DNA of 54,874 bases, the filler included, from Sphacelaria rigidula (Eukaryota), in assembly GCA_964200075.2 (NCBI GenBank). It is 3 parts of 3 records of this genome, joined end to end, with 100 filler letters (N's around TTAATTAATTAA, not from the genome) between each part and the next. Parts side by side here need not be neighbours in the genome. Positions count along the whole stretch, not along the records: positions 36,653 to 54,874 come from CAXNAA020000891.1; 2 more parts are not named here. The stretch is one strand, 5' to 3'. How positions within the stretch are numbered: the stretch's first letter is position 1; each line of letters begins with the position of its first letter. Shown piece by piece: positions 18,231 to 54,874 of the stretch. Below the pieces are notes generated by a model, which worked only from the letters and a program-made list of their open reading frames with translations, was not told the DNA's origin and searched no databases. A program made the translations under genes and the position numbers.

Positions 18231-18330
18231 NNNNNNNNNNNNNNNNNNNNNNNNNNNNNNNNNNNNNNNNNNNNTTAATTAATTAANNNNNNNNNNNNNN
18301 NNNNNNNNNNNNNNNNNNNNNNNNNNNNNN
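18231..18330. other. Artificial scaffold spacer (N44-TTAATTAATTAA-N44)
   Basis: Exactly 100 nt with an all-frame stop linker; the same spacer occurs at 36553-36652. Confidence 0.95.
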
Positions 18331-24628: not shown

Positions 24629-24666
<38 letters not shown>

Positions 24667-27600
24667 GAAAAGGTACAAACCTCTCCATGATGGTGAAGTC
24701 CTTCTGCGCATCCGAGCCTTCCTCTGCCCGGGTCCCGACGCCGGATGACGTGCGCATTGGTTCTCTGACGCTCAACCGCACGAATACCGACAGGATGAGG
24801 CCATAGCCGGCGACGATAAAGGCAGACATGCGCCAGCCGACTCCCTCTGCCATAGCAATGCTGAGGGAGCTCAGGCCTCCGCCCACATACACTCCAAATG
24901 CGTACACGCCGTTTGCCTGAAGTGCCGTGATCCGGGGAAAATATTTGGGCGGGAGGCGGGGGAGGTTTGTAGCATCCCTGCTTTATACCGACGAATCAAA
25001 AATGCTGGGTATAAGGGGTGAAAAATATTCATGGTTGCATTTCGGGGGAGTGAAGAGAACCTTTGCACGAACCTGCGTAAATATACCTTTCTTTTGTACT
25101 CAAAAAGGGTTTAGTTGACATGTCCAAGCTGTGTACACGAGACAGATTTAGATTCACCGCAAGCCATCATGTACTTCCATATTACCCACTTTATGGAGCC
25201 TTGCTATCTTTTCTCACAACCTAGACGGTGATTTGGAACCCCTTCGTTTTACACCCCCCTCGTCAATTGCCCGTGTCAACTACCGACCCGTCCTCTTTTC
25301 ATGCACAGCAAAATCTGGATGTATGCACTCACGACTTCTTACGTTTAGCTGTTGCACCAGCGGCAGGGAGCTTGGAGGGGCAAAGAGGGTCGGGGCGGGC
25401 CGCTGGGTGGGAAGGAAAAGGGGATCACGATAGCAACGCTGCAACCATGCCAGAGACCAAATCTACTTGAACCTGGGTAACACGGTGTTCCACTGTGAAA
25501 GAAGAGCCTTTGCAGTGTACTGAAATAGAACACCTCAACTTTAAGAAAAAAAAGGGACAAGAAGTTTGAGAAGAAAAATGAACCCAGACTGTAGTATACT
25601 GAAACGAGACACGAAAAGAGAGGGGCACAACTTACGACGATTTTGTTTTGAGGATCTCGTTTCTACAACGGGCTTTTTTCTTTTCTCTTCGTCACACCCC
25701 CCACCCTTCCCCTCCCTCGGGACGAGCCTGTGGTGTGAAGGCATCAACTCATCTCTCGAGGTGTGGTGTACGTCATCTACGGAAATGGCGCTTCCATCTC
25801 GTGACAAAAGCAAGATATATATCGTTCGGCTGCTGTTCATATGATCCTTCGCGTCTGCATTTCTGTTCATACTGACGATCAGATCTTCCAGATTTCCGCT
25901 GTCTTTTTCCTTCAGTCATCAGTTTACATCAATTTTTTCGTATTTCGTTTTAATTCTTTCATTTTTTGTATCGTCGACTTTCCTTCAATGAGTGATTTTG
26001 CCATGTGCCCATCTCGACGAGACAGGAAAAAGAAAGAAGTGGAGAGGAAAGCAAGGGTCGGGAAGCAGCATGTTCACTGGTCGCCGCAACTCAAGTGACG
26101 GACTCATGGTGACGGCGACCAATTGACGTCCTGCTCTTCGACGCTTGCTTTGTTCGCCGTTTCGATTCTCCTGTCTACAAGACAGGGGATCAAACTAGAC
26201 GTTGGGCACGCAGCGTACCAGTTGGGCGTGTAAAAACCAATCCATTATTCGTCATTTTTAAACCATTCAAGAAAAATAGACCGCACGCAACAAAAGTTCA
26301 TGCCCCGGGATAACGCCGCGCTCTGAAACGCTGCGAGGGAGCAAAGGGAGAGAGGGGACTAAAAAGCAAGCCCACACGCTAACTCCAAAAAATGCCATGA
26401 CCGATCGTAAAACGATGACTTTCTCAACAAATTGGAGAATCGGGGGGGGGGGGGGGGGCCAACCATGCGCAAGGAATCCCGAAGAGAAAAGAGCAAGGAT
26501 GGGAGAGAAAAGGGGGGCAAGAAAAAANNNNNNNNNNAGTATTTGGTTTGACTTTTGCCTTTTTAGGAGAGGATGTTGGGGTGTTGTGGAGGTGGGGCGA
26601 TCTCACCTGGGCCAGCGATTCCGCAGGAAAGTAATCGGCAATGATCGAGTAAGAGGCTGGTATCGAAAAAGATTCGCCGATCCCCAGGAAGATCCGCGAG
26701 AACAGCAGCCCAACGAAGTTTTGGGACAGCCCCAAGCCCACGGTCGCCAAGTTCCAGATGATCAGTCCGTAGAAGATGATGTTTCGCCGGTTGTACAAGT
26801 CCGCCGCACGCCCCATGAAGAGGCCGAAAATTACCTGTACGCAACCAACAGCCAACAGGCATTATACATGGGAGATTCGTTTTACGCGACTCGATCACCA
26901 AAAGCCATGGTCATGAGGTTTATATATACGTCGGAGAACAGATGGAAAGCGTGAAGATGGTATTACTCGATTTTCTTCCTCCAGCCTGCCATTAGGGTGA
27001 ATGCACACGCCCACCGATGCAGTAGCCGACTCGCTGGTTTCGATATTCATGGTCCATGTCTGGGCCCTTGTGTTTGTACTAAACAAATTCATGGGAGATC
27101 CGACCGGGCCATCTTGGGTATACTCTTTTGAAGACGCCAAGACTCACCTATGGAATGGAGGACATGAAAAACATCGCTCGCCATCCCTTTGACAGTATTA
27201 GGAATAATCACGATAGTTCCAAGGCTACCAACTGAGTCACCGGGGCGACTGGCATTCCGAATATCAAGAGGAAAAAAAATGCAGGGTGGAAACTGAAACG
27301 AAACAAAAAAACTCGAAACATCGCTCTCACGTAAAAGAACGAGAAGCCGTATCCGACCAGTAGACCGTACTCGGAGGTGGATATGCCGGTGGAATCCGCG
27401 ATGCTGATGAAGTTCTTCTGCTCGCGCGTCATCCCCAGCAGGAGGGCGGGGGTATGTGAAGACAAGGCATTCACGGGGGTAAACAACAAAAACAAGAATA
27501 CATGCGAGTGGATGGACGGGTGAGTGGCAGGGTTAAACGCAACGCAAAATAACTGACGGATTTCGTCAGTATTTTCCCTGTTTATTCTTGTATTTCAACA

Positions 27601-36552: not shown

Positions 36553-36652
36553 NNNNNNNNNNNNNNNNNNNNNNNNNNNNNNNNNNNNNNNNNNNNTTAA
36601 TTAATTAANNNNNNNNNNNNNNNNNNNNNNNNNNNNNNNNNNNNNNNNNNNN
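36553..36652. other. Artificial scaffold spacer (N44-TTAATTAATTAA-N44)
   Basis: Same 100-nt structure as 18231-18330. Confidence 0.95.
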
Positions 36653-36714
36653 GAATGATCAAAGCCACTCTCAATCGTATCATCTACTACTCCCAATCTC
36701 ACGAAAACAGTGTT

Positions 36715-36949
36715 GATAGCCCCCCCCCAAAACCAGCTAAAAGTGTTACGAAGAAAATGGCCATAAAGCGCCCGATGTTTGGGTTCAGGCTGCATGAAGC
36801 GCCTCATAGTGGCGACATAGGCTACAACGAACCCAAGCGTGGGAATTCCCAGCTTCGCGTTGTGCTCTGCTTTTTCCATTTCGATTTACGTGAACATTAT
36901 GCCTCCTAAAACCATGCACTTTTGGGGGGGGGGGCTATCCTAGAAAGTG
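36715..36949. mobile_element. MITE family B, copy 1 (left TIR truncated)
   Basis: GATAGCCCCCCCCCAAAA ... TTTTGGGGGGGGGGGCTATCCTAGAAAGTG. The interior (GATGTTTGGGTTCAGGCTGCAT...AACCCAAGCGTGG.AATTCCCAGCT) is shared with 45441-45688. Confidence 0.8.
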
Positions 36950-38927
36950 TCTGCATGATAAACGAGGTGAAGGACTGAACCAGATTTTGCGAAAAAAACA
37001 GGATATATATGTCGGGCTTCGACCTCATGACCTCCATAATGATGTAATGATGACTGTTAATAATAGAGTCTCTGGTACTTGGACTACTACTACCCGTGCG
37101 CAACGGTGTCAAACCAAAAGTTGAACACTAAAATCCCGATTTGAGCAGTTTTCAGCCGACACTTCACAGGGATCTTTCGCGCGAGTCAAAAGTTTTGATC
37201 GGGGATGCCGCCGTTCTTTGCCCCTCATAGCGTTAGTTGGGTTGTGGGTATGGGTGGTATGCTCCTTGCACTCTGTGACCACGGGTTCGAGAGATCGACC
37301 TAATGTGACAAACATAACAGTAATAACAACAAAAATAATTGAGTTGTGACTTTGACTAGTTTCCGCCGAAATTTTCCATCGCTCTCCCTCCCTTTCTTCC
37401 CAACCCCAGAACCTATGGATTTCTTGTCACAATTTCAGTGCTCATATCCTCGAACAAAGCCCTGCATCACCTGCAAACCGACGAAGAAGACTGTCGGCTG
37501 ACTCGGCTCGTAGCCATTTCTCTGGGTGAAACGACGAGAAGGACCAAATAAGCCGTGCCATCTTCCGGGATGATACACTTGTCTGGCCTTCCATTCAAGG
37601 GGAAGGGAGAAAACTCAACAGGAAGGAAAGGAGAATGAAAATCGATGCTCCTACTTGTTTTATGAGAATGCTCTGAGAACCCCTTTCTTTCGTTTTGGAT
37701 TGTCGACGGAACATTTCCAATGGGGTAATCGGGGTAATTCTACGGCGGGGAGTAGGGGTGCACTTTTCAATCCAAACGTTTTCTGGGGTTACACAGTAAG
37801 GACCAGATCGGGTAGTCATCGAAAGGCCCTCAAAGGTCAGCTCGTCCCACAAAAAGGTACACTCCTACCGTGGGAAAACTCAGACACAGGTGAAAAATGT
37901 CGTATAACTCGTGGAACTTGCAATTGAAGTGTATGTGGACATAGTATTGGCCAGCGAAGGGATTGGCCCCTTATCATGTAACGTGTCCACACATGCTGAA
38001 AAGTAACTGCCAGAGGTTTGTGGGTACCCTTCTTGGCTGCTTTTTCCACGCATCCTGATATGGGTTGCAGAAAAACATGGTCCCAACAAGCTGGCTCGCT
38101 TTGTTGTTCACGATATTCCGTCTAAATTTGTAGACTTCAGACGATAAACCAAGACAGGTATTTGACCGACACACTTATTGGGTATGCGCACTCATGTATT
38201 CATCACTATTGCAGTTCGTTGTGGAAAGTACCGGGCTTTGACTGCCCAACATATATTTACTGCAGGCACAATCAACACGTTTTGAAGTGCTGGCAGCACA
38301 CGACACGCCGATACAAATCTCAACAGAATCCGAGATACGTGATCGATGTGCGTGCGGCTCGTGCCTGCACAGACCGACCGCGCACAGTCATCAAACGGAT
38401 GGTAAATGCCCTCTCCAACGGCACTAGGAGCCCTTCCCGCCCTTCCTACACATTACATGGATGGGCGAGCGAGCACGTCTGGGGTTTTGTAATAGCACGA
38501 CGGACTCACGAGTAGGTGATAAATAATTCACCGCTGCACGATCACAAAAAAGTAGTGCCATCACGGCACTCAGGTCGAGATTCCAAGAGAAAAAAATGCC
38601 TCTCAAGAGACAGAGACAAACGTTGGACGCATCTACTCCCGCGCCACAGTGCTGCGAAATGTGTACTCCGCAGGCGTTACCCTTGTTCACGAAAATACGT
38701 TTTTACCAGCTTAAATTAATCTCTCGTAAATATTGATGCCTTCATTTTCAGACGCCCCCACTCCCTCTTCACCTGCCCTCCAACCCTTAACGAAAAGTCA
38801 TCACTTTCTGAAACGAAATCTGGAATTTTCAAGACAATAACCTGATCTTACATTTACCCCCCCCCTTCCTCCCCTCCCCCCCGCAATCCGCTGCTTTCTC
38901 CCGCACGGCTAGAAAAACAAACTCCCA

Positions 38928-41900
38928 TCATCCCCTCCCTCTTGTCAACAGAGTCCACACGGGAGTCAACCACCCCCGCACCGCTTCTCCTTCTGACCGA
39001 TGAGTGGCATCATATTCCCCAGTGTCGTTGCTGGCATCATGATTCTCCTCGCGCACACGTTTAGTACGGATTCGCGTATTACTCCCTGCCCTTCCGTCCT
39101 TGCCCGTACTATTTTCATTGCCCTCTGCAGCTGCCGCGTCTGTCTCAGAAACGTTCTCTGGATCGTTCTTGTTTCTGGTGGAACCCGAGGTGAGCACGAC
39201 ACGAGAGGTGGTGCTGCTGCCTGAGCGGCGACGGACATCCGTAGGACCAGGTTTGAGAACGGCGCGGGTCAAGGTAACGCTTGCGGAGGTCGGTCGCCCG
39301 GAAACGGCGGAGTTTGGGACGCCACCGCTACCGCCAACATTAATCCTTTTCATTGTAACGCTCTCGCTGCTGCCCCCCGTGTTGTCGGTCGTGGCCTCGG
39401 GAGCGTCAGTCCGACCGGGAGCATCAGGGTTGGCGGAAGCAGGGGCGTGGGAAATAGCCAGCCTCATCCATCCGCTCACCTCACCGTTTTCGTCGATGTT
39501 GCCGTTGTCGGTGGAGGGGTCCGTAGGCAGCGGGGGGACATCGGCATCAGGTTTTTGGTCGGCGTTGGTTGTCCCGGCGCTGACGCCTGATGTCACTCCG
39601 CCCGGGTTGTCCTTTTCCCCGCGTCCGCCCGACACCTTGTCTACATCGCTCGCGGCGGTGGCCGCGGTCGACACCTCCCCCGCCGTTGCATCTCCTCGTC
39701 TTACCTCTTCTTTCCCGGATACCGTAGTACCAACTACTGCTGTCGTGGTGTACGATGCCCCGACGCATGTATTTTGATCTGTCAACCCTCGCGTCCCCAC
39801 TTTCAATTTTCCAAAATGAGAACCACCAACCGGCCTGCCGTACATTTTCCCGCCTCGCAGCAGCACTGTCGTGACAGATCCTTCTCCCTTCTCGCCTCCA
39901 ACGGTACGCCCCATATCCTCTTGACCATTTCTGGACGTCCCGTCTGCCGCAACACCGCAGGGCGGTTGTTCGGCAGTGGTGCAGGACCCTCGCCGAGTCG
40001 AGGCACGTACAGGGTCCGCCGTTGGTACTCGCCTTCGCTTCCGGGGCGGCTCTGAACTACTCTTCGGGTCGTCTTCGGCGTTGAGAGGTGGGCACGAACC
40101 GATTTCGTTCTCGTTCTCTTGTGGGAGGGGTACGGAAATCTGCTGCGTCCTCGCCTCGATAGATATCGGCTCTTCAACGGACGATGCAGATCGTTCCTTC
40201 GCTGCGTCGGAAGTGTTCTTGTCGTTGTTGGGTAGCGGCTTGCTCGACCTGGTCGCCACTGGCGGACAACGGACAACGCCAGCGCCTTGCGAAAGCTCGG
40301 AAGGTCTCGAAATCTCTTCGCTAGTTTCTCGCTGGTCCGGCTGCTGCCGTCGAAGCCGCATCCGCTTGCCGGTTCTAGTTTCGACAGGGTCGCAACCCTC
40401 TGCGATCCCGGCGGGAGCATCACCAGCATCGCCGGTGCGAGCCTCATCCTCTGGTCGCTTCATCAACACGGTGTTCATGGCTTCGAGTGAGGTTGTGCTG
40501 CACTGCCGCAGCGGCGCAGCGACCGCGGTGACAACCTCTATCTGCGTCACCGTACTCCCCTGCCGCGCACTCCTCCTCCTTCCAACACACTCGACGGTCG
40601 AACCTGCTTGCCCCGAACGCAGCTTCCTGCCCACCACCGGCGCCTCCGCCGTGGCGGCCTCCGGGGCGACCTGGACAGCGCCATCGCCGTCGCTTCCGCC
40701 GTCTCCATCCGGCACGCCACGTCCCGTAGTACCACCGATCGCCACCTTCTTTTCATCTCGATCCTGGGATCGCAATTTCCTCCCGGCCCCGTTTGTGACG
40801 GCATTCCTCCCGGACGTTCGAGACGCTCGGACGTTTCTTCCACGTAGCCTCCGTCCGGCCGTCCTTGCTTCACCCACCAGTATTTCTTTTTTTCGGCGCA
40901 GTACTTCCGACAGGGGAAGGTCCTCCCACGCCACAACTTCGTTCTCGTCCACAGCGGCCTTCTTTCGGCGCAGTACTTCCGACAGGGGAAGGTCCTCCCA
41001 CGCCACAACTTCGTTCTCGTCCACAGCGGCCTTCTTTCGGCGCAGTACTTCCGATAGGGGAAGATCCTCCCACGCCATGACTTCTTCCTCATCCACAGCG
41101 GCCGCCGCTGCATCGGCACCAGCTGCCTGACCTTCGCCAGCTCCTGTTTTTCCTACGCCATTTCTCGGCTTGTCCTCCATCGATTCCCTCGCGTGTTTGT
41201 TGCTCTCGGCCGCCACCACCCCCGTCGCCACCGTAGCAGAAGTGCTATCGCTATTGCAACATGTGCTGTCGTTGCTGGCGGCGGTGGTGGTAGTGCGGTT
41301 GCCGGTGCACTCCGCCGGAACGTCTGTGATTGCAGTAGCGTTCCCCCGGTGTCGAGTCACGACGGCCTCGCGTTCGCGAGCTCCTAACGAAGATGTGGTA
41401 TCCGTTTCCTCTGCGGGCGACGGTGATGTTGGTGTCGTTGTTGTGGTCGACGGAGGTGACAGTGCCTGACGTCTGGATGTCATAGCGCGGGTATGCACCG
41501 GTCCTTCCCTTGATCTAGTCCTCAATGCTGCGGGGGCAGTGCTTGAATGACGAGCCTGGGTAGTGCCCAACGGCGAGACAGACCGTTTCGGTGACACAGA
41601 TCTTTTCGGGGATCGAGCGCGGACACGTCTCCTTCTATCCTTCTGCTTCGGCTGCTCCCTGCTTCAAGGGGGAAGAGAAACATGCCGAAGCGGGAAAAGC
41701 AGGAAAGCAAGAACGGCACGGTGAATTGAAGGTGAAGGGAATAGGACGGGGTTGTCATGATAAAACACACTGCACACCGTGTGAATTCGACCCCGAGCGT
41801 TGCCGGGCAGATGAAGGCAAGTCGGAATAACACTTTTCTCCGCGGAGAGCAACTCCGTAACCGTATTTATTCATTCAACAGGGCGCGCCCAACACTGCCG

Positions 41901-44900
41901 GCAGCAGCGTCAGAAGTCAACAATGAAATGCCGACGAAAACCAAACCACTCACCCGTCAGGACGTCCACCATCCGCTCCATCTTCAACCACAACACAATC
42001 TACACCCTGTTCGCCCACCACGATCGGCCTCGTTTGCACACCCCGAGCGTCGTCGCTGGTCGAAGACAAGGTACCGTGAGTTTCTCCATTTCTCGCGCCC
42101 ACTGCGGCTGATACCACAGCAGCTTCTGCGCCATCAAGCCTCGTGCGCGCCGACCGCAAACTACTACGGCGCGCCAACTGCTGCTGGTGGTGCCGTACGT
42201 CTCGACCCTCCTTACCGACGCCATCGCGTGCACGCATGACCCCCCGACGGCAGGCAACAGCACTGTCCTCTGAAGTCTCGGAGGGAGTTGGCTGGGGCGC
42301 CGGGGATATTGGAGTCACCGATTCCACAGCGACCTTCGATGGAGAAGCAACGGACGCCACCGGTGCAGCAGGCGACGGCAGGACCGTCGGGCGTGGACTC
42401 TGCGCGGGCGGCGGAGAGTCCCACGCAACAGAGGGAACTGCTTCGATTTCGTGCACGGTCCCTTTCCCACGACCAGGAATCCCGTCGCCGCCGCCACCGT
42501 GGCGAACACCATCCATACCGCAACTACCGCCGTCTTTCACGCCGGTGTTTGCTGCGCCATCGTCATCGCCGCCATGGTTGTCCCTACTACCGGTATCGCT
42601 GTCGAATGCGTGGCTCTTTTTGTCAGTAGTGGTGTTGCTGGGGTCTGGAGACGTGAGCACAGGCGTTGATGCCGGCGCCGGAGACTCGTTCACCGAGAGA
42701 GGAGTGACGATTGCTGGAGTTTGCATACATCTGCGTGTAACCGGAAACGGAGAACCAAGTGGCATGGAAATCGGTGGGAAAAAGGCTTCAGTCCAACACG
42801 GCTTTTCGGAAAATATCCTCGTGATTTTTTTCCGGCACGTGCTTCAGAAGCAAGGCGTGTCTGGGCGATCGTGCTGCCTAGCTGTTTTCTCATGAGAAAT
42901 GATGAAACTCGACCCCCCGATCGACACACTCTCGTGACCGGAGGCAGACACATCTTCGGTTATTTCGAGTCTCCCCTATACGAACTCACTGCGACCTTTT
43001 CCCCGTTAAAGGCATGCATGTGACGACACACGCGATACGCCCGGTGTAGGTGTTTTCGTTGGGATCACCAAGCTATGCATGTGCCGCATCGTCACTCGAC
43101 AAAATGCTCGGCACACTCTCAAAGTGTAATGCAGTCGAGCACACCTCCGCGCATGTGGCTGTCATGCTGTGACAGCATCTAGCAAGCTCTGTGCACATTC
43201 CCGGCGCTCAATAAGCGTGGAGGTGAGATGCAGCTCTCCACAAGGGGTACAGATCGACAACAAAAAAGCCGGCTGCGCACGATGGGAAGCATATACACCG
43301 TACAGCTCCAATCTTCACGTAAGTTTAACGTTGGATATGACAATAAAATATAGTGCAGGTGGCCCATTACACACACGTACCTGGAAGGGGTCGACTTTTG
43401 CGCAGTGTCATTGGCCAACAGCGGGGTGGACCCCCTGGGAGTCGATTGCCTGAATTTCTCAGACGACACGGGGAGAAGAACGGTGGGTGTTACTCCGGCA
43501 CCGGGAGATCTCGCAGATCTAGTAGATCTAGTAGACCTGGTGGATCTGGTGGATTTTGCCCATCTCGTGGAACGAGAAACGCTGTCTGTGATGTCTCCAA
43601 TGTCAACATCAGCCTCAGTTAACTCGGCCTCGCTAGCTGACCGAGACTTCTCCGCTTCGACATTGGTTCCCGCCGCCGTGTTGTTTGGTGATGCACTGGC
43701 GGCACCACTGACATCGTTTTCAATACTCAGCCGCTCAGAAGCGGAACCCTTCAACGCCCTTGCCGTTTCGCGTTCCAATGACGATGACATCCTACGCGTA
43801 GCCGCCACCACTGCTTTCGCCGGCGCAGACGCCGCATGCTTGTCGCCACTTTTCTGGATCACTCTACTCTTCCCGAGGGCATCCGGAGACAGGACACGAG
43901 CCTCATTGGAAGCGGTCGAGTCCTTCCTGGAAGAGTTCCTCGTGATTCTTTTCGTCGCCGAAGCTTCTGGCGGAGCGTCGCGCAAAACTTGGCATGCATC
44001 GGCGTTCTCGTCCACCGCGGTGTCGTGCTTGGCGTCGTGCGCCGAGGAGCACGCCGTCGGCACAGCCACCCCAGCCGCGTAGTCGCGGTATCCCATCAAC
44101 CCACCCTGCCCCGCCTTGCGCTGTGAGGTGTCCACACTGTCATCGTCAGGTGATTCGGCGGCGATGGCGGCGGAACATGCCAAGTTACCGTCACTCCCTG
44201 ATCCATACATCTTCCGCTTTTCCATTCTGGCCACATCATCGCACTCAGGAGTTGCCCCCGCCGCCCCCGGCATCACCGCCCCCGACTCCTGCGACACTTC
44301 GGCCAGCGAGACTGTCCGTTCATCATTGCCGCAGCAGTCCAGAGAAGGGGAGAAAGGGAGTGGGCTGCTGCTCTCCCCGTCTGTTTTGCGATCGAGTTGT
44401 CTGCCAGTGGTCTCAGTCGTGGTAGCGGGGCTCGAGGAAGCCGACGGTGGCGGTAGAGAAGTGAGAGCTATCCGTTTGCCGTTACCGTTGCCGCTGCCGT
44501 CGTCGACTGTCGAACTTTCGTCAGCATGAGAGATACTGCCATCGGCTGACGAGCGTGACTGCGGCGAAGACGCCGGCAGCAACGGCATCGACGATGGTAT
44601 GGGGTTCCGCCGCGGCAGTGCCCGGCGCGACAGTTGTCGTTCCAGGGGAACGGGTGCCGACTTGGCCGGGAAGGAAGATTCCGGGGCCACGGGATGAGCA
44701 GAATCATCGCACATCGCAAGGTCGGACATCGCAGTAGCGCCAGCACCAACACTAGCGCAGGAAGATCGAGACGACTGTTTTGTCGGCGGTGGGGACCTAC
44801 GGCGTTGACGGGGCGGGGGCGGTGACGCAGTATCCGTAGAACTCGGAGATCCAGACGAACAAGGAGACGTGGACGTTGTAGAACTAGATGGAGACATCGT

Positions 44901-47638
44901 AGATCCCAATGGAGAAGTTGTCGGCGACGTGGAAGATGGCGGAGATCGTCCCCTCCTCAAGTCATCACCCGACGCCATTCCTCGCCCGAGTGTCTTCGCC
45001 GCACCCTCGGTCGCCACAGTCGTGGCCGTCGCCGCTGCCACCATCCTGGCGGAACGGTTGCGCGCTTCTTGCACTTGGAACATGCGGTGCCCCCTGGAGT
45101 ACGCGCCACCTGCCGCTACTGACGCCCCCCCTGTACCCATTCTGGTCAAGGCCTGCAGCGCGGCGTTACTCGAGCTGGCGTCAAGTGTGGCAGACGGGCG
45201 GGCGTGGAGACCATTCCAAAAACTGCCAGTTCGCGGCGCTTTTCCAAGGCACTGATGTTTTGTTTCACGTGGGGAAGGGACAGGCGTGCGGGGATTATTA
45301 GGGAGTGGAGGGGAATCGGATACTGAAAAATGGATATCAAGGGAAGGAGGATAAACTTCACTTTTAGGGGTTTCAGGTCTGCTGACTGGCAATTTTTGCT
45401 GTAGTTGCCATTTGAAAAGTATAAATCGACGGAATGTCGACACTCTCTAGGGTAGCCCCCTCCCCAAAACCAGCTCAAAACCGTCACAAGGAAATGGTAT
45501 ACAGCGCCTGCCTGATGTTTGGGTTCAGGCTGCATTAAGCGCCTCATGTGAGCGACATTGGCGAAAACAAACCCAAGCGTGGAAATTCCCAGCTACTTGT
45601 TGTGCTCGACTTTTTTCACTCCGACTCACGTGTAGATTTCGCCTCCCCACACTAGCCACTTTTGGGGGGGAGGCTATCGTAAAAAGTGCAAGTCGCTCGA
45701 CGCCGCGGGGAGCAGGGAGTGCGTTGATCGGGATGGAGGGAGGAGGGAGTCATCATGTTCACGCGTCACACACTATGTTGTTTGTCTCCCTGTGCGCACG
45801 GCGACATCAAAAAAGTGTTTCCATAATTCGTTGTAGCTCTCGGCCGATCCCTTTCCAAGCCATCGGAGAACAATTTCATGCCGATGGAGATGTCTCACCT
45901 TTCCATCATGGCGCGTCCCAGAAGGAGGCGAGCACCCGGCGCCCCCGACGTTGAGGTCCAACGTCTGGACAGAGGAGGCCAGCATCAGCCCCGCGCTCGA
46001 GCCTCTGGGGTTCAAAAGGCCCTTCGTTCGACGCAGAGCCCCACTACGCTTGGACAGGCGGGCCCCGGCTCCAGGTCCAAAATTATTGCTGTTGCTGTGG
46101 AGTTTTTCTCCACAACGGAGGCTACCCTCCTGTCACAATTCACACATTGATTTTTGCAGGCGCGTTTCAGGGGAAGTGGTGAGGAACGAATTGGTTGCTC
46201 AACCGCGCACACACCGCCACACGCTGCGGAAATTTCACATGTGATGCATGTGGACCACAGCCGTGGTCACGGCCATTTTTTTAATCAATTTCGTGCCGGT
46301 TTCTGAGCCCTTAAAACACCCTCCAATAATAGTGGACACCAGGGGCGATCGTACATACGGTTGCAGTGCTCCGTTTGCATGCAAGGTATAATCGTGTATA
46401 TCTCAAGGCTGTGTGGTTTCAGAAATTCAAACACCAAAGTGGTGCCCCCCATGCTATGAACCACTGACCGTACGAATGAGTATACATCCTCTTCTCCCTC
46501 CGTGTACTTGCTCTCCAGGGGAGTGCGGGATCAAACTGGCGGCTTTTGTCGGGCTTCAGCACCTAGTTGCTGTTCATAAGTAACTCAGCAGTGGTACCGT
46601 ACATGTACTGCTGTAGCAGACAAACGGAGAGAGCTACTGTACGGATATCACGGACCGTGCAGACAGCATGCATGACAGCCTCGTGCTTATTATTTTCAGT
46701 ATCAACGCCGGGTCTTTGTGAAGAGTACCCGATTTCGGGCCAAGTGAGAGCCAGGCTCAGAAGGTATGGGAGCGGCCAAATGTAGTTCAAACGGGGTTGC
46801 CAGTTCATGCGCAACGACACGCGTTAACGGTGTAGGGTAGTACAGTAGATACTACCCCACCGTGCTGGCTCATTGTACTATAATAGCGTTTGTACTTCTG
46901 TATCCAGAGGGTATCGATCCCGAGGTATCGCGCCATCAGGCAGCACCTCAAGGTATCTGACTGGGTAACTGGGGGCAACAAGACGAGCCCATCCCATTAT
47001 GGAATGACTTGTCCGTAACTTGTCTGCACGCGCTGGGGAGCACAGCAGTCCAGGCAGCGAGTCGTGTTCACCATCTGGGCGGGCCGCACAGGGTATATAC
47101 AGAGTAAGGCATGCTGAGACTGTTTATCCTCGCCGATTTCATAGTCGCATCACGGCGCCAGAATCCTGGTGACATGCTGCAACGACCCTCATCGGACATC
47201 AGGAATCGATTAAAATGCATTGAGAGCGCAAAACACAGCACCATCCTTTGCGGTCGCAATGTACAACAGTCACGTGATTGCCAACTCCTGCCATGCAACA
47301 TGCATGAAAAATGCAACACACCCCCTGCCGTCCTGACCAGCAACCGTTGGGCCAAATCAAAATCGGCGCGAAGTAGCTGCTGCCCAGCTTGGGGTCCCGA
47401 AACCTCTGCACCAAATTTGAAAAACGGGTCAAAACTCAGTACAAAAATTTCTCGCACACACACCAACCGACCAACTTACCTTGAATGATACCCTTTTCGG
47501 CTCGGCGCCTTCCGCGGACGAAGGTGTCCTGTCCCGGCGCAGAATAGACTTGGGTGTGATTGACCTGTAACTGTGGCTGTTGTTGTTGCTGCTGCCGGTG
47601 CCTTCCTGGGTGACATTGGCTAGGCATCCCTCCATCAT
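38928..47638 (-). CDS. Large (~1,940 aa) low-complexity, probably disordered protein with N-terminal PP1-docking motifs (KSILR, KRVSF, FDPALP); function unknown
   Basis: Exons 47638-47480, 46562-46474, 46094-45899, 45251-43381, 42730-41954 and 41658-38928 join in consistent phase with GT-AG sites, giving 5823 nt ending in TGA. Three long ORFs (754, 271 and 889 aa) fall into this frame. The exon 2 donor and the start ATG are the least certain parts. Confidence 0.8.
40890..41105 (-). repeat. Coding minisatellite, 72-nt unit x3 (AAVDENEVVAWEDLPLSEVLRRKK)
   Basis: GTACTTCCGA recurs at 40901, 40973 and 41045; the units are near-identical. Confidence 0.95.
45441..45688. mobile_element. MITE family B, copy 2 (in intron 3 of the large gene)
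   Basis: ~29-bp TIRs CACTCTCTAGGGTAGCCCCCTCCCCAAAA / TTTTGGGGGGGAGGCTATCGTAAAAAGTG; homologous to 36715-36949. Confidence 0.8.
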
Positions 47639-49049
47639 TTTCGTGCTGTCTGTCTGAGACCTGGTTGACGCTCCGTCGCGTGTTGCGCACTGCTCCTGAT
47701 CCACGCGGCTGTTGAAATATTCAGGTCCAAGCACGGTATTCAGCCACGCGTACACTGAAGGTAGCAGTGACAATAGCAGAGGTAGTGATGGTAGTGTGTC
47801 AAGCCCGCGTAGGGTTGTGGCGATTCGAGGGAAGCGCACTGTCTGTGAGAGAGAGGGCACGGAGCAAGATTTTTGATTTTTTGAATTTATCGGATTTTCA
47901 AGTCTTGACGGATTTCATAACTTCTGATTTCTCACGATGAATCCGATGTAGCCTGCTACGCTCTCTAGTCAAGCAGCACGTCAAATCAACCCTGGGGTTA
48001 TCGTATCGTCTGACGGGGAATGAGAACGGCTGACTGTACCCAGTGAAAGAGAGTGGGAGAGGAAAATATGAACCGTAGTGGACTACATTGATGGCAGTTA
48101 GTATTGACAACGAGGAGGTAGAGGCGTTCGATGCCTGTCCGGAGGTTGCGTCCGCCTACTCTGTGGGAGCACCGGTGGTGACCACCATCCTTGCTCGTCC
48201 CTATCCAAGGTGATATGAACGTTGATCGTTTTGGACATACTGCATGCAATCTTTACGCTGTAACTGGAGGGTATTGTCGATGCAGCACGTGGGGGCTTTC
48301 GTCGTAGACTGTTGTGGGGTCGCTTGATGAGAGGATGATCCGGGTTTGGTGATGTATCCAGTTGGCACTCTCACGGCATTCTGCGACGGTAGAGACCACT
48401 TTTTTTGGGGGGGGTGAGTGTGACTTCTGCGTCTTGATGTTTGCTTTGCTCGTACATTTGTTTGACTTTGAACGTAAAAACACGAGCGGGTGCTTTGGTT
48501 TCTTTTCGGAAGCTTCGTGTGCAAGAACGCGCCCAGAAAAGTTCGCAAGAAGTGGTAGTAGGACGAACCGGAGCAAAAGTACACGGCAACAACAGCAGCA
48601 GCTTCGTGGTATTCTCTCCTCTCGTTCGCGCTTTGATTCGCTGATTGATTGAGCTGTAGTTGCTGCATTCTCGGGTCGAAGCTGTTTCGACTTTCGTGTT
48701 CCCCGAAGCGATGTCACGTAATACAGCCCAAGTACCGTCTTCACTTGATCAAGACTGTCTGAGCGAAAATTTCGGCGGGCTGATGTAACTGGACCCGGAG
48801 AGGGTGCCCTGTGAACGTGATTTCAGACTCTATCGTCGGAGACATCCGTGTCTTATCCACTGCTCGCAATCATTGGCATGTCTCGACTGTATACGGTACT
48901 GATTATTGAAGAGGCGTCGTAGAGGACGGAAGATGTCCCTTTTTATCAGTTTGTGGCGTAGCGAAGCGTTGTTCCTACAGCATGCGCATACATCTGTCGT
49001 TGTACTACGACGCATGCACATGGCATTCCCGATGTTTATTTTATCAGTC

Positions 49050-49283
49050 CAGTAGTGGGTACCGTAATACTGTAAGTGCACGAAGGCCGACAGTCACCAT
49101 CGACGAGGGAAAAGGAACGCCGAACCCGTGTCCGAGCAAAGGGTAAACACCGCAGAGGGATGGTGAAGTACTATCAAAACAACAACACTAGAAATAACGA
49201 ACTCCTATGTTGACCTCCCTCCTGTTCGACCCCGGATGATGCGCCCACATAAAAAGAGAGGTGTAGACTGATGTCCGGAATAC
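49050..49283 (+). mobile_element. Diverged 3' portion of the same SINE family
   Basis: TCGACGAGGGAAAAGG...CACCGCAGAGGGATGGTG...GTTGACCTCCCTCCTGT...GACCCCGGATGATGCGCCCACATA...GTAGACTGATGTCC matches 5390-5600. Confidence 0.7.
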
Positions 49284-49301
49284 ATGGGATGACAACATAA
49301 C

Positions 49302-49337
<36 letters not shown>

Positions 49338-50070
49338 ACCCGCACACAGGACGGCGAACACCAACGAACAAGGGACTCCACGNNNNNNNNNNCCCCCCGG
49401 TGGAGGCCCCCACAAAAAAAGGAGGGGTGGCTTGATGTCCGGAAACACTGGGATCAAAACAAAACACCCCCCCCCCCCCCCCCCCCCCACACACACACTG
49501 TAGAGGCGTCGAAGATAGAGTACCTTCATCTGGAGGCGAACATCTAGTGGTGAGGTGCTTGACGTGTCGAAGAATCAAGCTGGTCTACCGAACTGCACAG
49601 CACACCGTAGCGAGAGCGACAGAGATGGACATGTGTGGATGTTGACTGTATATCAAATATTAAAACGAGTACACGAGTACAAAGTCAAATATATAGTATG
49701 GTGTCGTTTTGCACCAAGTTCCGGTTCCTCCTGCAACCAGGATGTGCCGATTCGGCAGTTCAACAGTACAGTAGTAGCACTCGTATATACTTTTGCCTCC
49801 CGTCTCTCTGTCTTTTGGCATTCACACGTTTTAGCAATATTGCAATGTTGTACATGTTGACGGAACAACCGCCATAAAAGCAGAGTATGATGGCCTCTGC
49901 CAACAGCTGCTCGAGCAGCTACACCAGTATCTCAATGTCCATGCACATTTTGTTACAGTAATTGAAGTGGGCTAGCTCTCTCTGATACCTAGACCATCTT
50001 GTACGTCAACCAATCCATACAGTGTTGCAATTAGCTAATGTGAGATAATCAATCAATCAACAGTATTTGT

Positions 50071-50961
50071 TAGAGTTGTGAACTGGCTGCCAGTTTAACT
50101 GACCAGTTACAGTTCATTGGTACAACTGGTGAACTGATCGGTTTTGTAACCAGTTGAACCAGTTATTTCACCTGACATCCGTGTCATACTCCGAAGTGTT
50201 TTGTGTTCATATCTGTCATACTCGAGTCAACGTTTTTGGAGTTTTATCGTACCACAATGACCCTAGGGACGCTGTTACAGAGGCGAGTACATGGATGACC
50301 GCATATCGCACACCTGAACGTAGACACGAATATCGCAGACAAAATATACTTATACAAGAAGAAGTAGAGATTGAGCACGGACAGTTGTTGATTGAGCGGA
50401 TCTGAAATGTGAAGCAAGACTGCGCTCCATAGCGTTGTTGTGTGTGTTTTGCTTCATTCTGTCGGCGTTGAGCGTTGATCGTTTTGTGGTGGCTCGTCAA
50501 TGTGATACCGAAGCATGAGGAAGAGTCGAGATTTCTATTAAATTTTCTTGACTGATGAAATCACACTCAAGAACATCACCAAGTTGTGCTACTATAGTAG
50601 TAGGTTCTGTCGCTTGGGTGGTACACGCGTAACGCTATATATGCTGCACTACTGTCTCACCGCTTCGTTTTTTAATTAACGTCGCAAAGTTGAGTGATAT
50701 TTCCTTTTTCCCCATACATATTTTTGTGCACCGATTACGTGCTCGAATTGCTGGCGCTAGGCGACTGGAATTCACCACAATTTTGAAGAGATATGAAGCC
50801 AAGTAGTGTATTTTTCTTGCCTCCGGCAGGGCCCCCTCACCAGCCGAGGGAGGCCGCTTAAGCGACTTTGCCGCCAGTTATCCACTTTTAACTGATAACT
50901 GTAACTAGTTGTAATTTTTTGCAATCAGTTAACTGGTTAGCCAAACCAGTTCACAACTCTA
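50071..50961. mobile_element. hAT-like non-autonomous element
   Basis: Perfect 16-bp TIRs TAGAGTTGTGAACTGG / CCAGTTCACAACTCTA, many subterminal CCAGTT/AACTG repeats, and flanking 8-mers GTATTTGT / GGATTTGG (6 of 8, a decayed 8-bp TSD). Confidence 0.75.
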
Positions 50962-50980
50962 GGATTTGGTACCTATATCA

Positions 50981-51224
50981 GCCCGTCTACAGCCGGTTTT
51001 CCCCTGTGGATCCATATCTCGGACCCCAGTCCGTTGGGCGATGTTTTTCGCGTAGCCCTGAGGAAACCACATCGATTCTCTGGACGTTGACTTTTGGTTT
51101 ATCACCTTTCTGCTCAGAGAATCAGAGACTTCATGTGGTTTCCTCAGAGCTAGACGAAAAACATTGCCCAACGAACTGGGGGCCGAAAAATCAATCCACG
51201 GGAGAAAATCGGCTGTAGACGGGC
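50981..51224. mobile_element. Foldback MITE with ~90-100-bp arms (possibly Harbinger/Tourist-like)
   Basis: GCCCGTCTACAGCCGGTTTTCCCCTGTGGAT...CTGAGGAAACCACAT pairs with ATGTGGTTTCCTCAG...ATCCACGGGAGAAAATCGGCTGTAGACGGGC. Confidence 0.8.
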
Positions 51225-52094
51225 TCGAATCCCCATATTTGTACAAATCCGGTTTGGTTGCCGTACAAGATGGTCTAGCCCTTTGTCTACGGGGTGGTCT
51301 CCCGCCAATTGCAAAACTAAGCCGCCTCGCTAGCATCGATCGTTTTGATCTCTCTGGCCCGCGGTCAACTCTCATTAATCTCTCGGAAGCAGACGTGAAT
51401 CCTTGTTCCGTGTCCACCTGCCTACCCTCAATACGTGAGCCAACCTGAGTATCAGAGGTTCGACTACGTCTGGCAGCTTAATTACTCGGATGAACAGTAC
51501 GTTCCCCCTGATTCTGGACTCCAGTCAAACGAACTCTGGGTGCGCGATCTTCCATATATGTGAAACCCCCGGCCGTACACGCGAAACACCAACGAGTTTA
51601 TTACCTGAAAATCTCACGACAACCCGCGCAACCATGTTACGGTGACATCTGCTGTTGTGTTATAGCACCGTAGAGTTTGTCATCTTGTGTACGTTCCTCT
51701 CAGATTGACACGGAGCTTTAGCGCATGAAACTGATGCGCGCCAGAACTTCTTTCTCACTCATGTCCAGTTTTTTTCAATGCTGATGAGTCCCAATTCCGG
51801 TGTTCCGACTGTACCGTACACGTGTATACACATCCGGATGCATGTGGACGGGCGGGCACGCCAAAAAAAAAATCATGCCCTTGATAGCGCACCACGTGCA
51901 TCTCGCCTGCCGGATCCGTTCTTCTTCCGTCCCTCACCGACCTCGACATATCGCGCCTGGATAACACAAACGTCCGAAACACGCACCCCGTCATGGCGCA
52001 CTTTCCCGCGTTCCCTTGGACAACATCGCCACAAACGCCGACTTTTTTAGGTTGAGATCGAAAGGACCCAGTTTCCGGCGCGGCAGTCATCCCC

Positions 52095-53450
52095 ATGAAC
52101 GGAAATAATGGGCATGGAGGTATCGTTAGCTCGTCACCATCAACAACGAGAGCAAGCTCTGGGCCTCCGGGGCCGGCGGCGGCAGCGGCGACAGAAGCGT
52201 ACCCGCCAATAGACAGGCAACCTATCCGGCCGCGGTTGGCGCCTCCCGCTTCCATGCCCCCAGCTTCGGCGTTTGTAGGACAGATCCCGGGCGCAGATGG
52301 AAATTTCGGTGTAGCAAATGACCCGCCAGCGGTTGGAGGGGATGCGAGATTGCCGGGCCGGTCACCACAACAACACCACCACCACCACCAGGTGGTGCAA
52401 AACACACCTGTTGGAGCCAGCGGCGGCGGCAAAACAAGCGTCAGGCAGACTGTGGTCAACACGCGCGCAGCTGTCGGTTTCCTCAAGTCGAGCAGGAGAA
52501 TAAGGGAGGCGAGAAAAAAGGTTGAGATGGAAAGGAGGGCTAGCAGTGCGGCCGAGCGATCGACTGCGGCAACTCCCACCCCGTCTGCTGCGGCAGGGTC
52601 AACGGCACCGGGAGCGGGAAGCATCAACACTTCACCCGCGGGCTCTGCCGTTGCACCTGATTCGTTTGGAGCACCAAACCTCCCCCAGACAAGAGCTTTG
52701 ACCAACGGGACGGTACAGGTCGTGAAAGGTGGGATATCACCCGCACCGGCGGCGGCGGGCCGATCTCTTCCAGGTGGTGTCCTAAGCGCATGCGCCGGGG
52801 TTAAGTCTACGGCGGAGGGGTCGCCTCGGAGGCTAGCCATGGATCGATACCGTGAGCTGGCAAGAAACAGCGACTCTGAAGCTGCGGTAGCTGCGCAAGC
52901 TGCAGCAGCCGTGGCAGCGGCGGCGGCAGCGCCGCCTGATCGACCTCCCCTTACACCCATCAACCCTTCCCCGATAGCACCACAAGGTATCGGGGGTGAT
53001 CTCGCGGGAAACATCCCGATAGGGCAATACCATCAGCGCCCACCACTGCGAACATGCGCGGATCACGCAGGTCGAACCCAACCCCCGACAGAACAGCAGC
53101 CCGCCGAAGCGAATGGATCGGGGGCGGCGGCGGTCACGGCGGTCAACGCGGCCGCCACCAGTGTCACTCCAGGTACAGCAGGTTTGGTGCGCGAAGCTGT
53201 GTTGGCGGTGGAGCCTTGGGCGGAAGGAGTTGTTTCTTCGTCGAGGGGAGGCGATCGAGCTGCGCTTGGAAAGACAGACCGGAGGGAGAGCGGCGGGTCT
53301 GTTGGAGAGGGAAGGGGGGAGCTGTGGGCTTCGGATACCTTGAAGGAGCTGTATGGGGGTAGGACGGCCGATGTAGAATACACGGTCCAGGAGCATGCGA
53401 CGCCGACGAGTGAGCCCAAAGTGGTGCTGTTGCTGGAGGAGGAGGCCGAG
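52095..53450 (+). CDS. First coding exon of an Ala/Pro/Gly-rich protein of unknown function; continues downstream
   Basis: 485-aa ORF. An in-frame TGA lies just upstream of ATG 52095, after a TTTTTTAG acceptor at 52050 (likely a 5'UTR intron). Likely donor GAG|GTGGGT at 53450/53451, after which composition becomes intron-like. Confidence 0.7.
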
Positions 53451-54474
53451 GTGGGTACTGTGGGCGCTACATCACTCGGCAGAGTGTTTTCGGTTTGGTG
53501 CTGTTTTGCGGTTCCGACTGTTACGTGCGGTAGACGAGGCCTGTATGTGTGATGTATATTAATGCCGCCCAGGCTCGGAGATTGCTTGGTGTATAGGTCA
53601 TCATATACTCTTGTTCAGATGCTCCCCATACCTGTACTGAAGAGCCTGTTGCTTCTCAAAAACCTGTGCACTAGCTTCTTGCTCGCAAGATACGTCTTGT
53701 TGGTCGGTATACTTGACGTACTATAGATCCAAATACTCACTATTACTACAATGTGGAGATTTTCGGTATAGTGCATGCAGAGTTATCACATTGGGGTTTT
53801 GACCTCTCCCGCTTTTATTTATTTATTTTTTGCACGAGGAAGAGAACTTGTTGCAGTGCGCGAGATCGGATTTGTGGCGGGAGAGAAAAAATCACGTACA
53901 CTTCCCCCCCCCCCCCGAAAGTACATCGGTCGTCCCCCACTTTTTCCTTTTTTTTGGGGGGGGGGGGGGGGGGGGACGCATTTTTTTTTTTTTTTTTCCC
54001 CCCTTCAACTTTTAAATAATTTTTTTTTTTTNNNNNNNNNNGGGGGAAAAAAAAATACACTCCCGCCCCCCCCCCCCCCCCGAAGTAACTGGGGTCCCCC
54101 CCCTTTTTCCCTTTTTTTGGGGGGGGGGGGGGGGGGGGGCATCATACTTTGTTGATTTAGTGCCCCCTTTACACTGTAGATGAATCATTGTTGTTTTAGT
54201 ATGTTACAGGGGTCCATGACTACTGCCGCGCCCCGGCGGTCTAATGACACAACTTATCCGTTAGGCCAGGAAAGGCAGATCCAATGCCGGCACATACGTT
54301 CGTATATTTATTTGTGGAAGTATCTGATGTCCGTTTTTTAAAACCTGAGGACCGTGAAGACCGGAATAAGACTTCATGATTATAGTCATGATCCAGTCCG
54401 CGGTGGTGCCAAATTGCAAGGCGTGTGTCGGGGGAAGTATTGGGGTGTAAAAAAGTGTGCCAAAAAAAAAAAAG

Positions 54475-54874
54475 CAGGGAGGGATACGTGACACACGTGA
54501 CACATTTGAAAAAAACGGAAAAAACGTAACTTTGGCCCATTTGACGCTACGTACGGTTTGATTTTTTGGACGGGACAAGTGCAACGTAACGTGATGTAAC
54601 ATGTGGACCTTGAAGCAGTGTAAAAAGGCTGTTTTTGCGATTTTTTTACGTGACACGTGATATATTCACGAAAACAAGCAGAGTTTTCGTCACATTTGGA
54701 AAGTAAACCGCAATGTTGGGGTTCATGCGAAGAAGCACCACACGTTACATCACGTTACGTTACACATGTCCCATCCAAAAAATCAAATCTTACGTAGCGA
54801 GCGTTAAATGACCCAAAGTTACGTGTTTTCGAATGTGTCACGTTAAAACGTCACGTGTCACGTATCCCTCCCTG
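54475..54874. mobile_element. hAT-like MITE with long (~130-bp) TIRs
   Basis: Perfect terminal 20-mer CAGGGAGGGATACGTGACAC / GTGTCACGTATCCCTCCCTG, with imperfect pairing continuing inward and many ACGTGA/ACGTAA repeats. The right TSD is outside the window. Confidence 0.85.

Follow-up and report, generated by a model that had tools for sequence, protein, structure and literature searches.

The window analysed here, a stretch of 54,874 nucleotides from Sphacelaria rigidula (GenBank assembly GCA_964200075.2), consists of three parts of three records joined end to end with filler between them, with positions 36,653 to 54,874 coming from CAXNAA020000891.1. On its minus strand, between 47834 and 38210, lies a gene of five exons that encodes a protein of 1922 amino acids. 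An initial annotation of this locus had joined two exon candidates and had read from them a docking module for protein phosphatase 1 (PP1) consisting of SILK, RVxF and FDxxLP motifs, a combination reminiscent of Ki-67 and RepoMan. Spliced contigs place the FDxxLP part of this module within an intron and leave a SILK/RVxF pair, a putative PP1-docking site, at the N-terminus of the protein.

Gene structure

Eight public sequencing runs carry the 9-kb region of the gene, none of which is recorded as RNA. Three runs from one study (X1, X2 and X3) each contain 55-64% of the words of the region, and another run (X5) contains 99%; the contigs of these four runs were compared with positions 36660-49380 of the window. 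Runs X1-X3 were taken as resembling complementary DNA (cDNA) on the basis of the GT..AG joints in their contigs, the RNA label being a guess. One contig of X1 (3868 nt) and one of X2 (3842 nt) run through 41025-41657, 41953-42730, 43381-45251, 45899-46128 and 47479-47834 (47808 in X2). The four joints that result (47479 to 46128, 45899 to 45251, 43381 to 42730 and 41953 to 41657) are all found in X1 and X2, and three of the four in X3; every skipped piece is bounded by GT..AG as read on the minus strand. The contigs of X5 span the gene region (37279-49250) with short gaps only and contain none of the four joints. Since GT..AG joints are found in X1-X3 and not in X5, the three runs behave as cDNA and the gene lies on the minus strand. 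When the four junctions are combined, a single open frame of 1922 codons is obtained, ending with a stop codon at 38928-38930 (minus strand), which argues that the junctions are correct, as wrong junctions would not yield such a frame. The gene is thus composed as follows (nt, nucleotides; UTR, untranslated region).

To at least 47834, minus strand: 5′ UTR, covered without a joint in X1 (47479-47834) and X2 (47479-47808)
47480..47638, minus strand: coding part of exon 1, 53 codons in phase 0 from the first ATG of the transcript to a GTAAGT donor
46130..47479, minus strand: intron 1, 1350 nt, GTAAGT...GACAG; joint 46128/47479 (cut +1) in X1-X3, not in X5
45899..46129, minus strand: exon 2, 231 nt, 77 codons; the true continuation after RVSF-K, in which the frame stays open
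43381..45251, minus strand: exon 3, 1871 nt; contig joints and open frame
41954..42730, minus strand: exon 4, 777 nt (cut +1 reading); joints 43381 to 42730 and 41953 to 41657 (cut +1), and open frame
38928..41658, minus strand: coding part of exon 5 with the stop codon (38928-38930); contigs 38210-38870, 38886-40941 (X2) and 41025-41657
To about 38210, minus strand: 3′ UTR, contig cover

We regard this splice structure, and with it the absence of a module of the Ki-67/RepoMan (KiR) type from the protein, as very highly probable.

At the N-terminus, there is no ATG in 47834-47638 and an in-frame stop lies upstream, at 47915-47917. Further upstream, at 48014-48211 on the plus strand, one contig of X1 (1928 nt) and one of X2 (3085 nt) terminate beside a plus-strand donor (AAG/GTGAT), with their remainder outside 36660-49380, and an uncovered gap of 179 nt separates the contigs ending at 48211 from the contig of the gene studied here. 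This donor and this gap fit a divergent neighbour better than upstream exons of the same gene: 48014-48211 probably belongs to a gene transcribed divergently, as its first exon, the two genes sharing about 180 nt of promoter region, and the SILK-RVxF module stands at the true N-terminus of the protein. With the module at the start of the transcript, Rif1 is removed from the alternatives, as it would need HEAT exons upstream. Exon 1 is the first exon, no such exons precede it, and no Pfam HEAT/ARM match was obtained for any exon; this candidate was rejected.

A dispersed high-copy repeat is present in two copies, 76-80% identical, one downstream of the gene (36720-36933) and one in intron 2 (45457-45673). 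The summed contig depth of X5, with a baseline of about 62-70, reaches 11,692 at 45160-45584 and more than 100,000 at 36660-37509, and contigs of X5 join both places.

The FDPALP segment of intron 1

The second of the two pieces joined by the initial annotation is the following.

46474..46562, minus strand: proposed 89-nt 'exon', with FDPALP at 46518-46535, AG before it and GT after it; inside intron 1

The letters of the proposal are accurate, in that joining 47638-47480 (53 aa with SILR and KRVSF) to 46562-46474 by script returns the same peptide. The join itself is not the one made in the transcripts: contigs of all three cDNA-like runs link exon 1 to 46129 instead. Neither the segment nor its junctions occur in any listed contig of these runs, and the same holds for the whole of 46435-47284, where the X5 depth of about 70 corresponds to the single-copy baseline. 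As the segment is spliced out with the intron, the mature protein is devoid of an RVxF plus KiR-SLiM module, and FD..LP is missing from the 1922-aa product. The initial annotation had itself named the exclusion of this exon as grounds for abandoning its proposal, and 46562-46474 is indeed not spliced in.

The motif in question, KiR-SLiM, has a consensus of 17 positions, FDxxLP(P/A)N(T/S)PL(R/K)(R/K)Gx(T/S)P, and begins eight residues past RVSF in Ki-67 (RVSF 505-508, F517); the portion of the source available to us describes it only for Ki-67 and RepoMan (PMC5005033). In the hypothetical join, the spacing after RVSF would be ten residues and, beyond FDxxLP, two basic positions would fit this consensus. 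The Pfam PP1_bind family gave no match at E<=10 when exon 1 and the 29-aa pseudo-exon were scanned separately. A PP1-binding domain of the Ki-67/RepoMan type was accordingly rejected: RVxF is present, but KiR-SLiM and a PP1_bind match are both lacking.

We may wonder at this stage whether the segment is used in a minor isoform, as a cassette exon of 89 nt giving a SILK-RVxF-FDxxLP protein of about 121 aa, which would represent a non-animal PP1 module of the KiR type. The segment is bordered by AG and GT and keeps the frame of exon 1, its spacing after RVSF is near that of Ki-67 (PMC5005033, available in part), and assembled contigs may miss rare isoforms. Moreover, when the 54.9-kb window is translated in all six frames, FD..LP is encountered just once, inside intron 1, and no more than 29 out of 5000 shuffled introns produce it. 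However, the three cDNA-like runs are silent on the segment, and a message that contained it before the verified exon 2 would read every later verified exon out of frame, with a stop after 121 aa (89 nt) or 86 aa (94 nt, with an alternative donor). Its acceptor is TAG, compared with CAG in four out of four verified introns, and the match to KiR-SLiM beyond FDxxLP is limited to the two basic positions. The GC content does not discriminate (0.55 for the pseudo-exon, 0.50-0.52 for introns and 0.57-0.63 for exons). We consider the isoform to be very improbable, and FD..LP in intron 1 is regarded as an unlikely coincidence, selected after the fact.

A KiR-SLiM in so distant a eukaryote, if true, would change views on how mitotic-exit phosphatases arose. 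What was striking in the proposal is here an artefact of exon calling, and motif modules stitched over hand-called exons need transcript support.

A SILK/RVxF pair in exon 1

The other two motifs of the proposed module are both carried by the spliced contigs, within the first 52 residues of the protein.

47537..47548, minus strand: SILK-type motif SILR, residues 31-34, the sole [GS]IL[KR] of the 1922-aa protein, identical in the relative P0002 (see below)
47483..47497, minus strand: RVxF-type motif KRVSF, residues 48-52, the sole [KR]V[^P][FW] of the 1922-aa protein, identical in P0002

SILR lies 14 residues upstream of KRVSF, which is separated from the donor of exon 1 by a single codon (K53). 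The serine of KRVSF is in a [KR][KR]x[ST] context. The protein contains only 0.5% Phe and 1.6% Ile, and the ordered pair ([GS]IL[KR], 5-40 residues, [KR]V[^P][FW]) was obtained in none of 20000 composition-preserving shuffles of the 1922-aa sequence. In PP1 interactors SILK is N-terminal to RVxF, an order with which that of SILR and KRVSF agrees (PMC3792071, available in part). A validated SILK/RVxF pair with short spacing is known from plant SBG1, in which the mutated residues were C46/L47 and V63/F65 (PMC13652734, likewise available in part).

Relatives and conservation

Exon 1 has a sole match in a search among short proteins, a protein of 58 aa encoded on one 4816-nt contig (P0002, E 4.5e-17). 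To judge from its sequence, P0002 represents the first exon of a relative together with read-through of the intron behind it: the residues V-S after the junction fit a retained GTAAGT donor. The 28 residues from R25 to F52, which include both motifs, are identical in the two sequences, compared with 12 out of 23 before R25. Past the junction, the read-through of P0002 differs at several residues, which indicates that the DNA of the two has diverged. The variable part of the comparison is, however, a low-complexity run of Ser/Asn, with CAG/CAA/AGC repeats in the DNA.

At the other end of the protein, a search of 1.84 billion representatives with exon 5 (909 aa) gave a sole match at E<=0.001, a protein of 597 aa encoded on one 3045-nt contig (P0001). 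It is collinear with the present protein and has only short islands in common with it (WEDLPLxEVLRRKKEIL, SEPPxKRxRV, GWM[RK]LA..H.P and VRGWLTPVWT.LT). The identity to P0001 is 32-37% in the C-terminal half, compared with 100% to P0002 over the exon-1 module, with the reservation that the two relatives may not share one organism.

Other searches were negative. Exon 1 against proteins of 94-2000 aa gave 13 candidates, none at E<=10, and exon 3 against proteins of 342-1091 aa gave none at E<=0.1 among 8000 candidates scored. In metagenome contigs, patterns derived from alignment A1 produced 573 matches, none of which was confirmed, and a degenerate pattern of the C-terminal motif produced eight loci, all chance matches once translated. 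A sequence search of the PDB returned no match for exon 1 or alignment A1, and the ESM Atlas no usable match for the C-terminal 220 aa or exon 1. By these sequence comparisons the protein is an orphan, belonging to a lineage-restricted family that is very sparsely represented.

Does the pair dock PP1, or did it arise by chance? Several points weigh against docking. SILK/RVxF pairs are expected by chance several times per proteome of typical composition, by our own estimate, and the SILR/KRVSF pair was selected in a scan of very large size. Pfam gave no match to a family of PP1 regulators. Furthermore, when the low-complexity run is excluded from the comparison with P0002, identity is 28/28 in the module and 10/11 in the preceding residues (Fisher p = 0.28); as this contrast is not significant, the conservation may be just ordinary coding constraint. 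The initial annotation had asked whether the motifs are conserved islands among orthologues: SILR and KRVSF are identical in the one orthologous exon found, whereas their contrast with the surroundings is weak outside the low-complexity run, and constraint on the SILK-RVxF module is only weakly supported.

These points would suit a pair that is no docking site at all, its identity in P0002 reflecting coding constraint or a short divergence time, the more so as exon 1 has a single relative and the searches for others were empty. Such a chance origin has to be reconciled with the outcome of the shuffles and with the uniqueness of both motifs in a protein so poor in Phe and Ile. It must also account for their order, their spacing, the strict KRVSF form and the N-terminal place, all of which agree with known PP1 interactors, and for a module left intact in P0002 when the relative of the C-terminal half retains about a third of its residues (a comparison possibly between organisms). 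We find a chance pair possible yet doubtful, and we give the docking of PP1 by the SILR/KRVSF pair, as far as its sequence allows this to be judged, an even chance.

The body of the protein

The remainder of the protein is marked by a tandem repeat and a few short motifs.

40888..41103, minus strand: 72-nt unit in three tandem copies, every one of which encodes a WEDLPLSEVLRRKK helix motif; P0001 has a single conserved copy
40026..40055, minus strand: basic patch SEPPRKRRRV, found by pattern match and conserved in P0001; candidate nuclear localisation signal (NLS)
39441..39473, minus strand: conserved island GWMRLAISHAP, from the comparison with P0001
38943..38981, minus strand: island VRGWLTPVWTLLT conserved at the C-terminus (four residues follow it), forming a short helix, with 11 out of 13 residues identical to the C-terminus of P0001

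The 72-nt units are 89-99% identical to one another. The contigs of all runs break at 40888-41103, and at position 40911 runs X1, X2 and X5 have G where the window has C; repeat collapse or an error in the window may explain this. For the last 909 aa, an AlphaFold2 (AF2) model based on an alignment of two sequences has a mean predicted local distance difference test (pLDDT) score of 37.5, with helices only at the repeats and in the last few residues. The repeat helices are the only stretch above a pLDDT of 60 (61-81), the C-terminal helix (898-905 of the model) being at about 50. The protein is thus predicted to be almost wholly disordered: the model displays no confident fold in the last 909 aa, and is too shallow to prove disorder. 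No Pfam family was matched by exons 2-5 at E<=10. The only Pfam match was a sub-threshold one to DUF4658 (E 0.025 for exon 1 and E 0.015 for P0002), on which a literature search (DUF4658/PF15555) found nothing. Neither a KEN box nor a D-box of the pattern RxxL....[NDE] occurs in the protein.

The large disordered PP1-docking protein envisaged by the initial annotation survives as a hypothesis, with SILK and RVxF present and no HEAT, MELT, RWD or FHA found, and is to be amended by the removal of FDxxLP and of the likeness to Ki-67/RepoMan that went with it.

A long protein with such an N-terminus could also be a diverged KNL1/Spc105 scaffold, in which a lineage-specific repeat stands for MELT and the kinetochore-binding C-terminal end has degenerated. 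An N-terminal SILK/RVSF, as found here, is one of the features by which KNL1 orthologues are recognized (PMC4558858), and plant KNL1, which has lost SILK and MELT, has kept an N-terminal RVSF that recruits PP1 (PMC11797493; both sources available in part). The sequence and repeats of KNL1 evolve rapidly, and a threefold tandem repeat is present here. That repeat, WEDLPLSEVLRRKK, is nevertheless not MELT-like, and the protein contains no MELT-like motif ([MILVF][DE][MILVF][ST]), compared with 1.1 expected from shuffles. No KNL1/Spc7 family was matched in Pfam at E<=10, the similarity of the C-terminus to P0001 is confined to short islands and does not extend over a domain of 300 aa, and neither a coiled coil nor an RWD-like fold is seen in the AF2 model, this last point being a weak argument given the model's two-sequence alignment and low pLDDT. 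A KNL1 orthologue is in our view quite improbable.

Other features of the window

No PP1 catalytic subunit was found in a Pfam scan of 49 open reading frames (ORFs) of at least 130 aa in the window and of six stretches of this gene, and Rfam gave no match on the window. Elsewhere in the window the following were observed.

6080-6472 and 7093-7671, minus strand: ORF pieces matching the C-terminal and N-terminal parts, respectively, of Pfam Thioredoxin (E 1.9e-6 and 2.4e-4), probably a thioredoxin-domain gene with split exons, as judged from these matches
24359-24982, minus strand: ORF whose match to the Major Facilitator Superfamily stays below threshold (E 1.6e-4, 21 bits for a cut-off of 33)
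51758-53549: G+C-rich region with overlapping open frames of 425 aa (minus strand) and 498 aa (plus strand), neither of which has a Pfam match
18231-18330, 26528-26537, 36553-36652, 49383-49392 and 54032-54041: seven N runs, 206 bases in total

At two of the N sites, two runs of 44 N are separated by 12 bases. Long sequence rich in G/C homopolymers (poly-Gly/poly-Pro in ORFs) surrounds the 10-N runs at 49383 and 54032. Such N runs look like scaffold gaps or masked stretches.

Proposed function and comparison with known systems

The best reading of the locus, which we hold with a confidence only slightly above even, is that of an orphan disordered protein that would dock PP1 via SILK and RVxF, encoded by five exons and with FDPALP left in an intron. 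The SILK groove of PP1 would receive SILR and the RVxF groove RVSF, both grooves lying on a face distant from the active site. PP1 would then be carried to a partner or substrate, probably in the nucleus, by the long disordered body, which bears the NLS-like patch and three short conserved helix/Trp motifs; a nuclear location of the protein is probable because of its basic patches. Phosphorylation of the KRVSF serine by a kinase could turn the docking off, a regulation made plausible by the [KR][KR]x[ST] context of this serine. Phospho-regulated docking of PP1 has been described for KNL1 (PMC2845083) and for Ki-67/RepoMan (PMC5005033), both sources being available in part. That the full-length protein is a PP1 scaffold of this lineage's own on mitotic chromatin or kinetochores, analogous and not homologous to KNL1, Ki-67 and RepoMan, seems to us unlikely. 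A literature search on PP1, RVxF and brown alga together found nothing. The candidate is unremarkable but reasonable, and its value lies in opening the targeting of PP1 to tests in a lineage that has been sampled little.

With Ki-67 and RepoMan, the protein has in common its large size and disorder, a basic patch of nuclear type and an RVSF tetrapeptide that is the same as that of Ki-67. It differs from them in that the mature protein has no KiR-SLiM, FHA domain, Ki-67 repeats or PP1_bind match. Conversely, it has SILR, whereas the available part of PMC5005033 describes no SILK motif for Ki-67 and RepoMan. The likeness to KNL1/Spc105 is more extensive, with SILK followed by RVSF in the first 60 or so residues of a very long disordered protein, tandem repeats and an RVSF serine in a basic kinase context. 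Yet MELT-like and KI motifs are absent, and no coiled coil or RWD was detected at the C-terminus (in a low-confidence model). In Rif1, too, SILK and RVxF both recruit PP1, according to the part of the literature that was available, but the present protein is without HEAT-repeat exons. It would resemble other SILK/RVxF interactors of PP1 in its working, and none of the defining features that could be tested places it in the Ki-67/RepoMan, KNL1 or Rif1 families.

Inhibitor-2 and SBG1 are small proteins (129 aa for SBG1) and inhibitors, and the 1922-aa protein has no sequence similarity to them, nor is an inhibitory C-terminal element evident in it. As in these two proteins, however, [GS]IL[KR] is found shortly upstream of [KR][KR]VxF within a disordered stretch. 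The spacing in SBG1 is similar to the 14 residues observed here, and the SBG1 pair is sufficient for the binding of PP1 (TOPP) (PMC13652734, in its available part).

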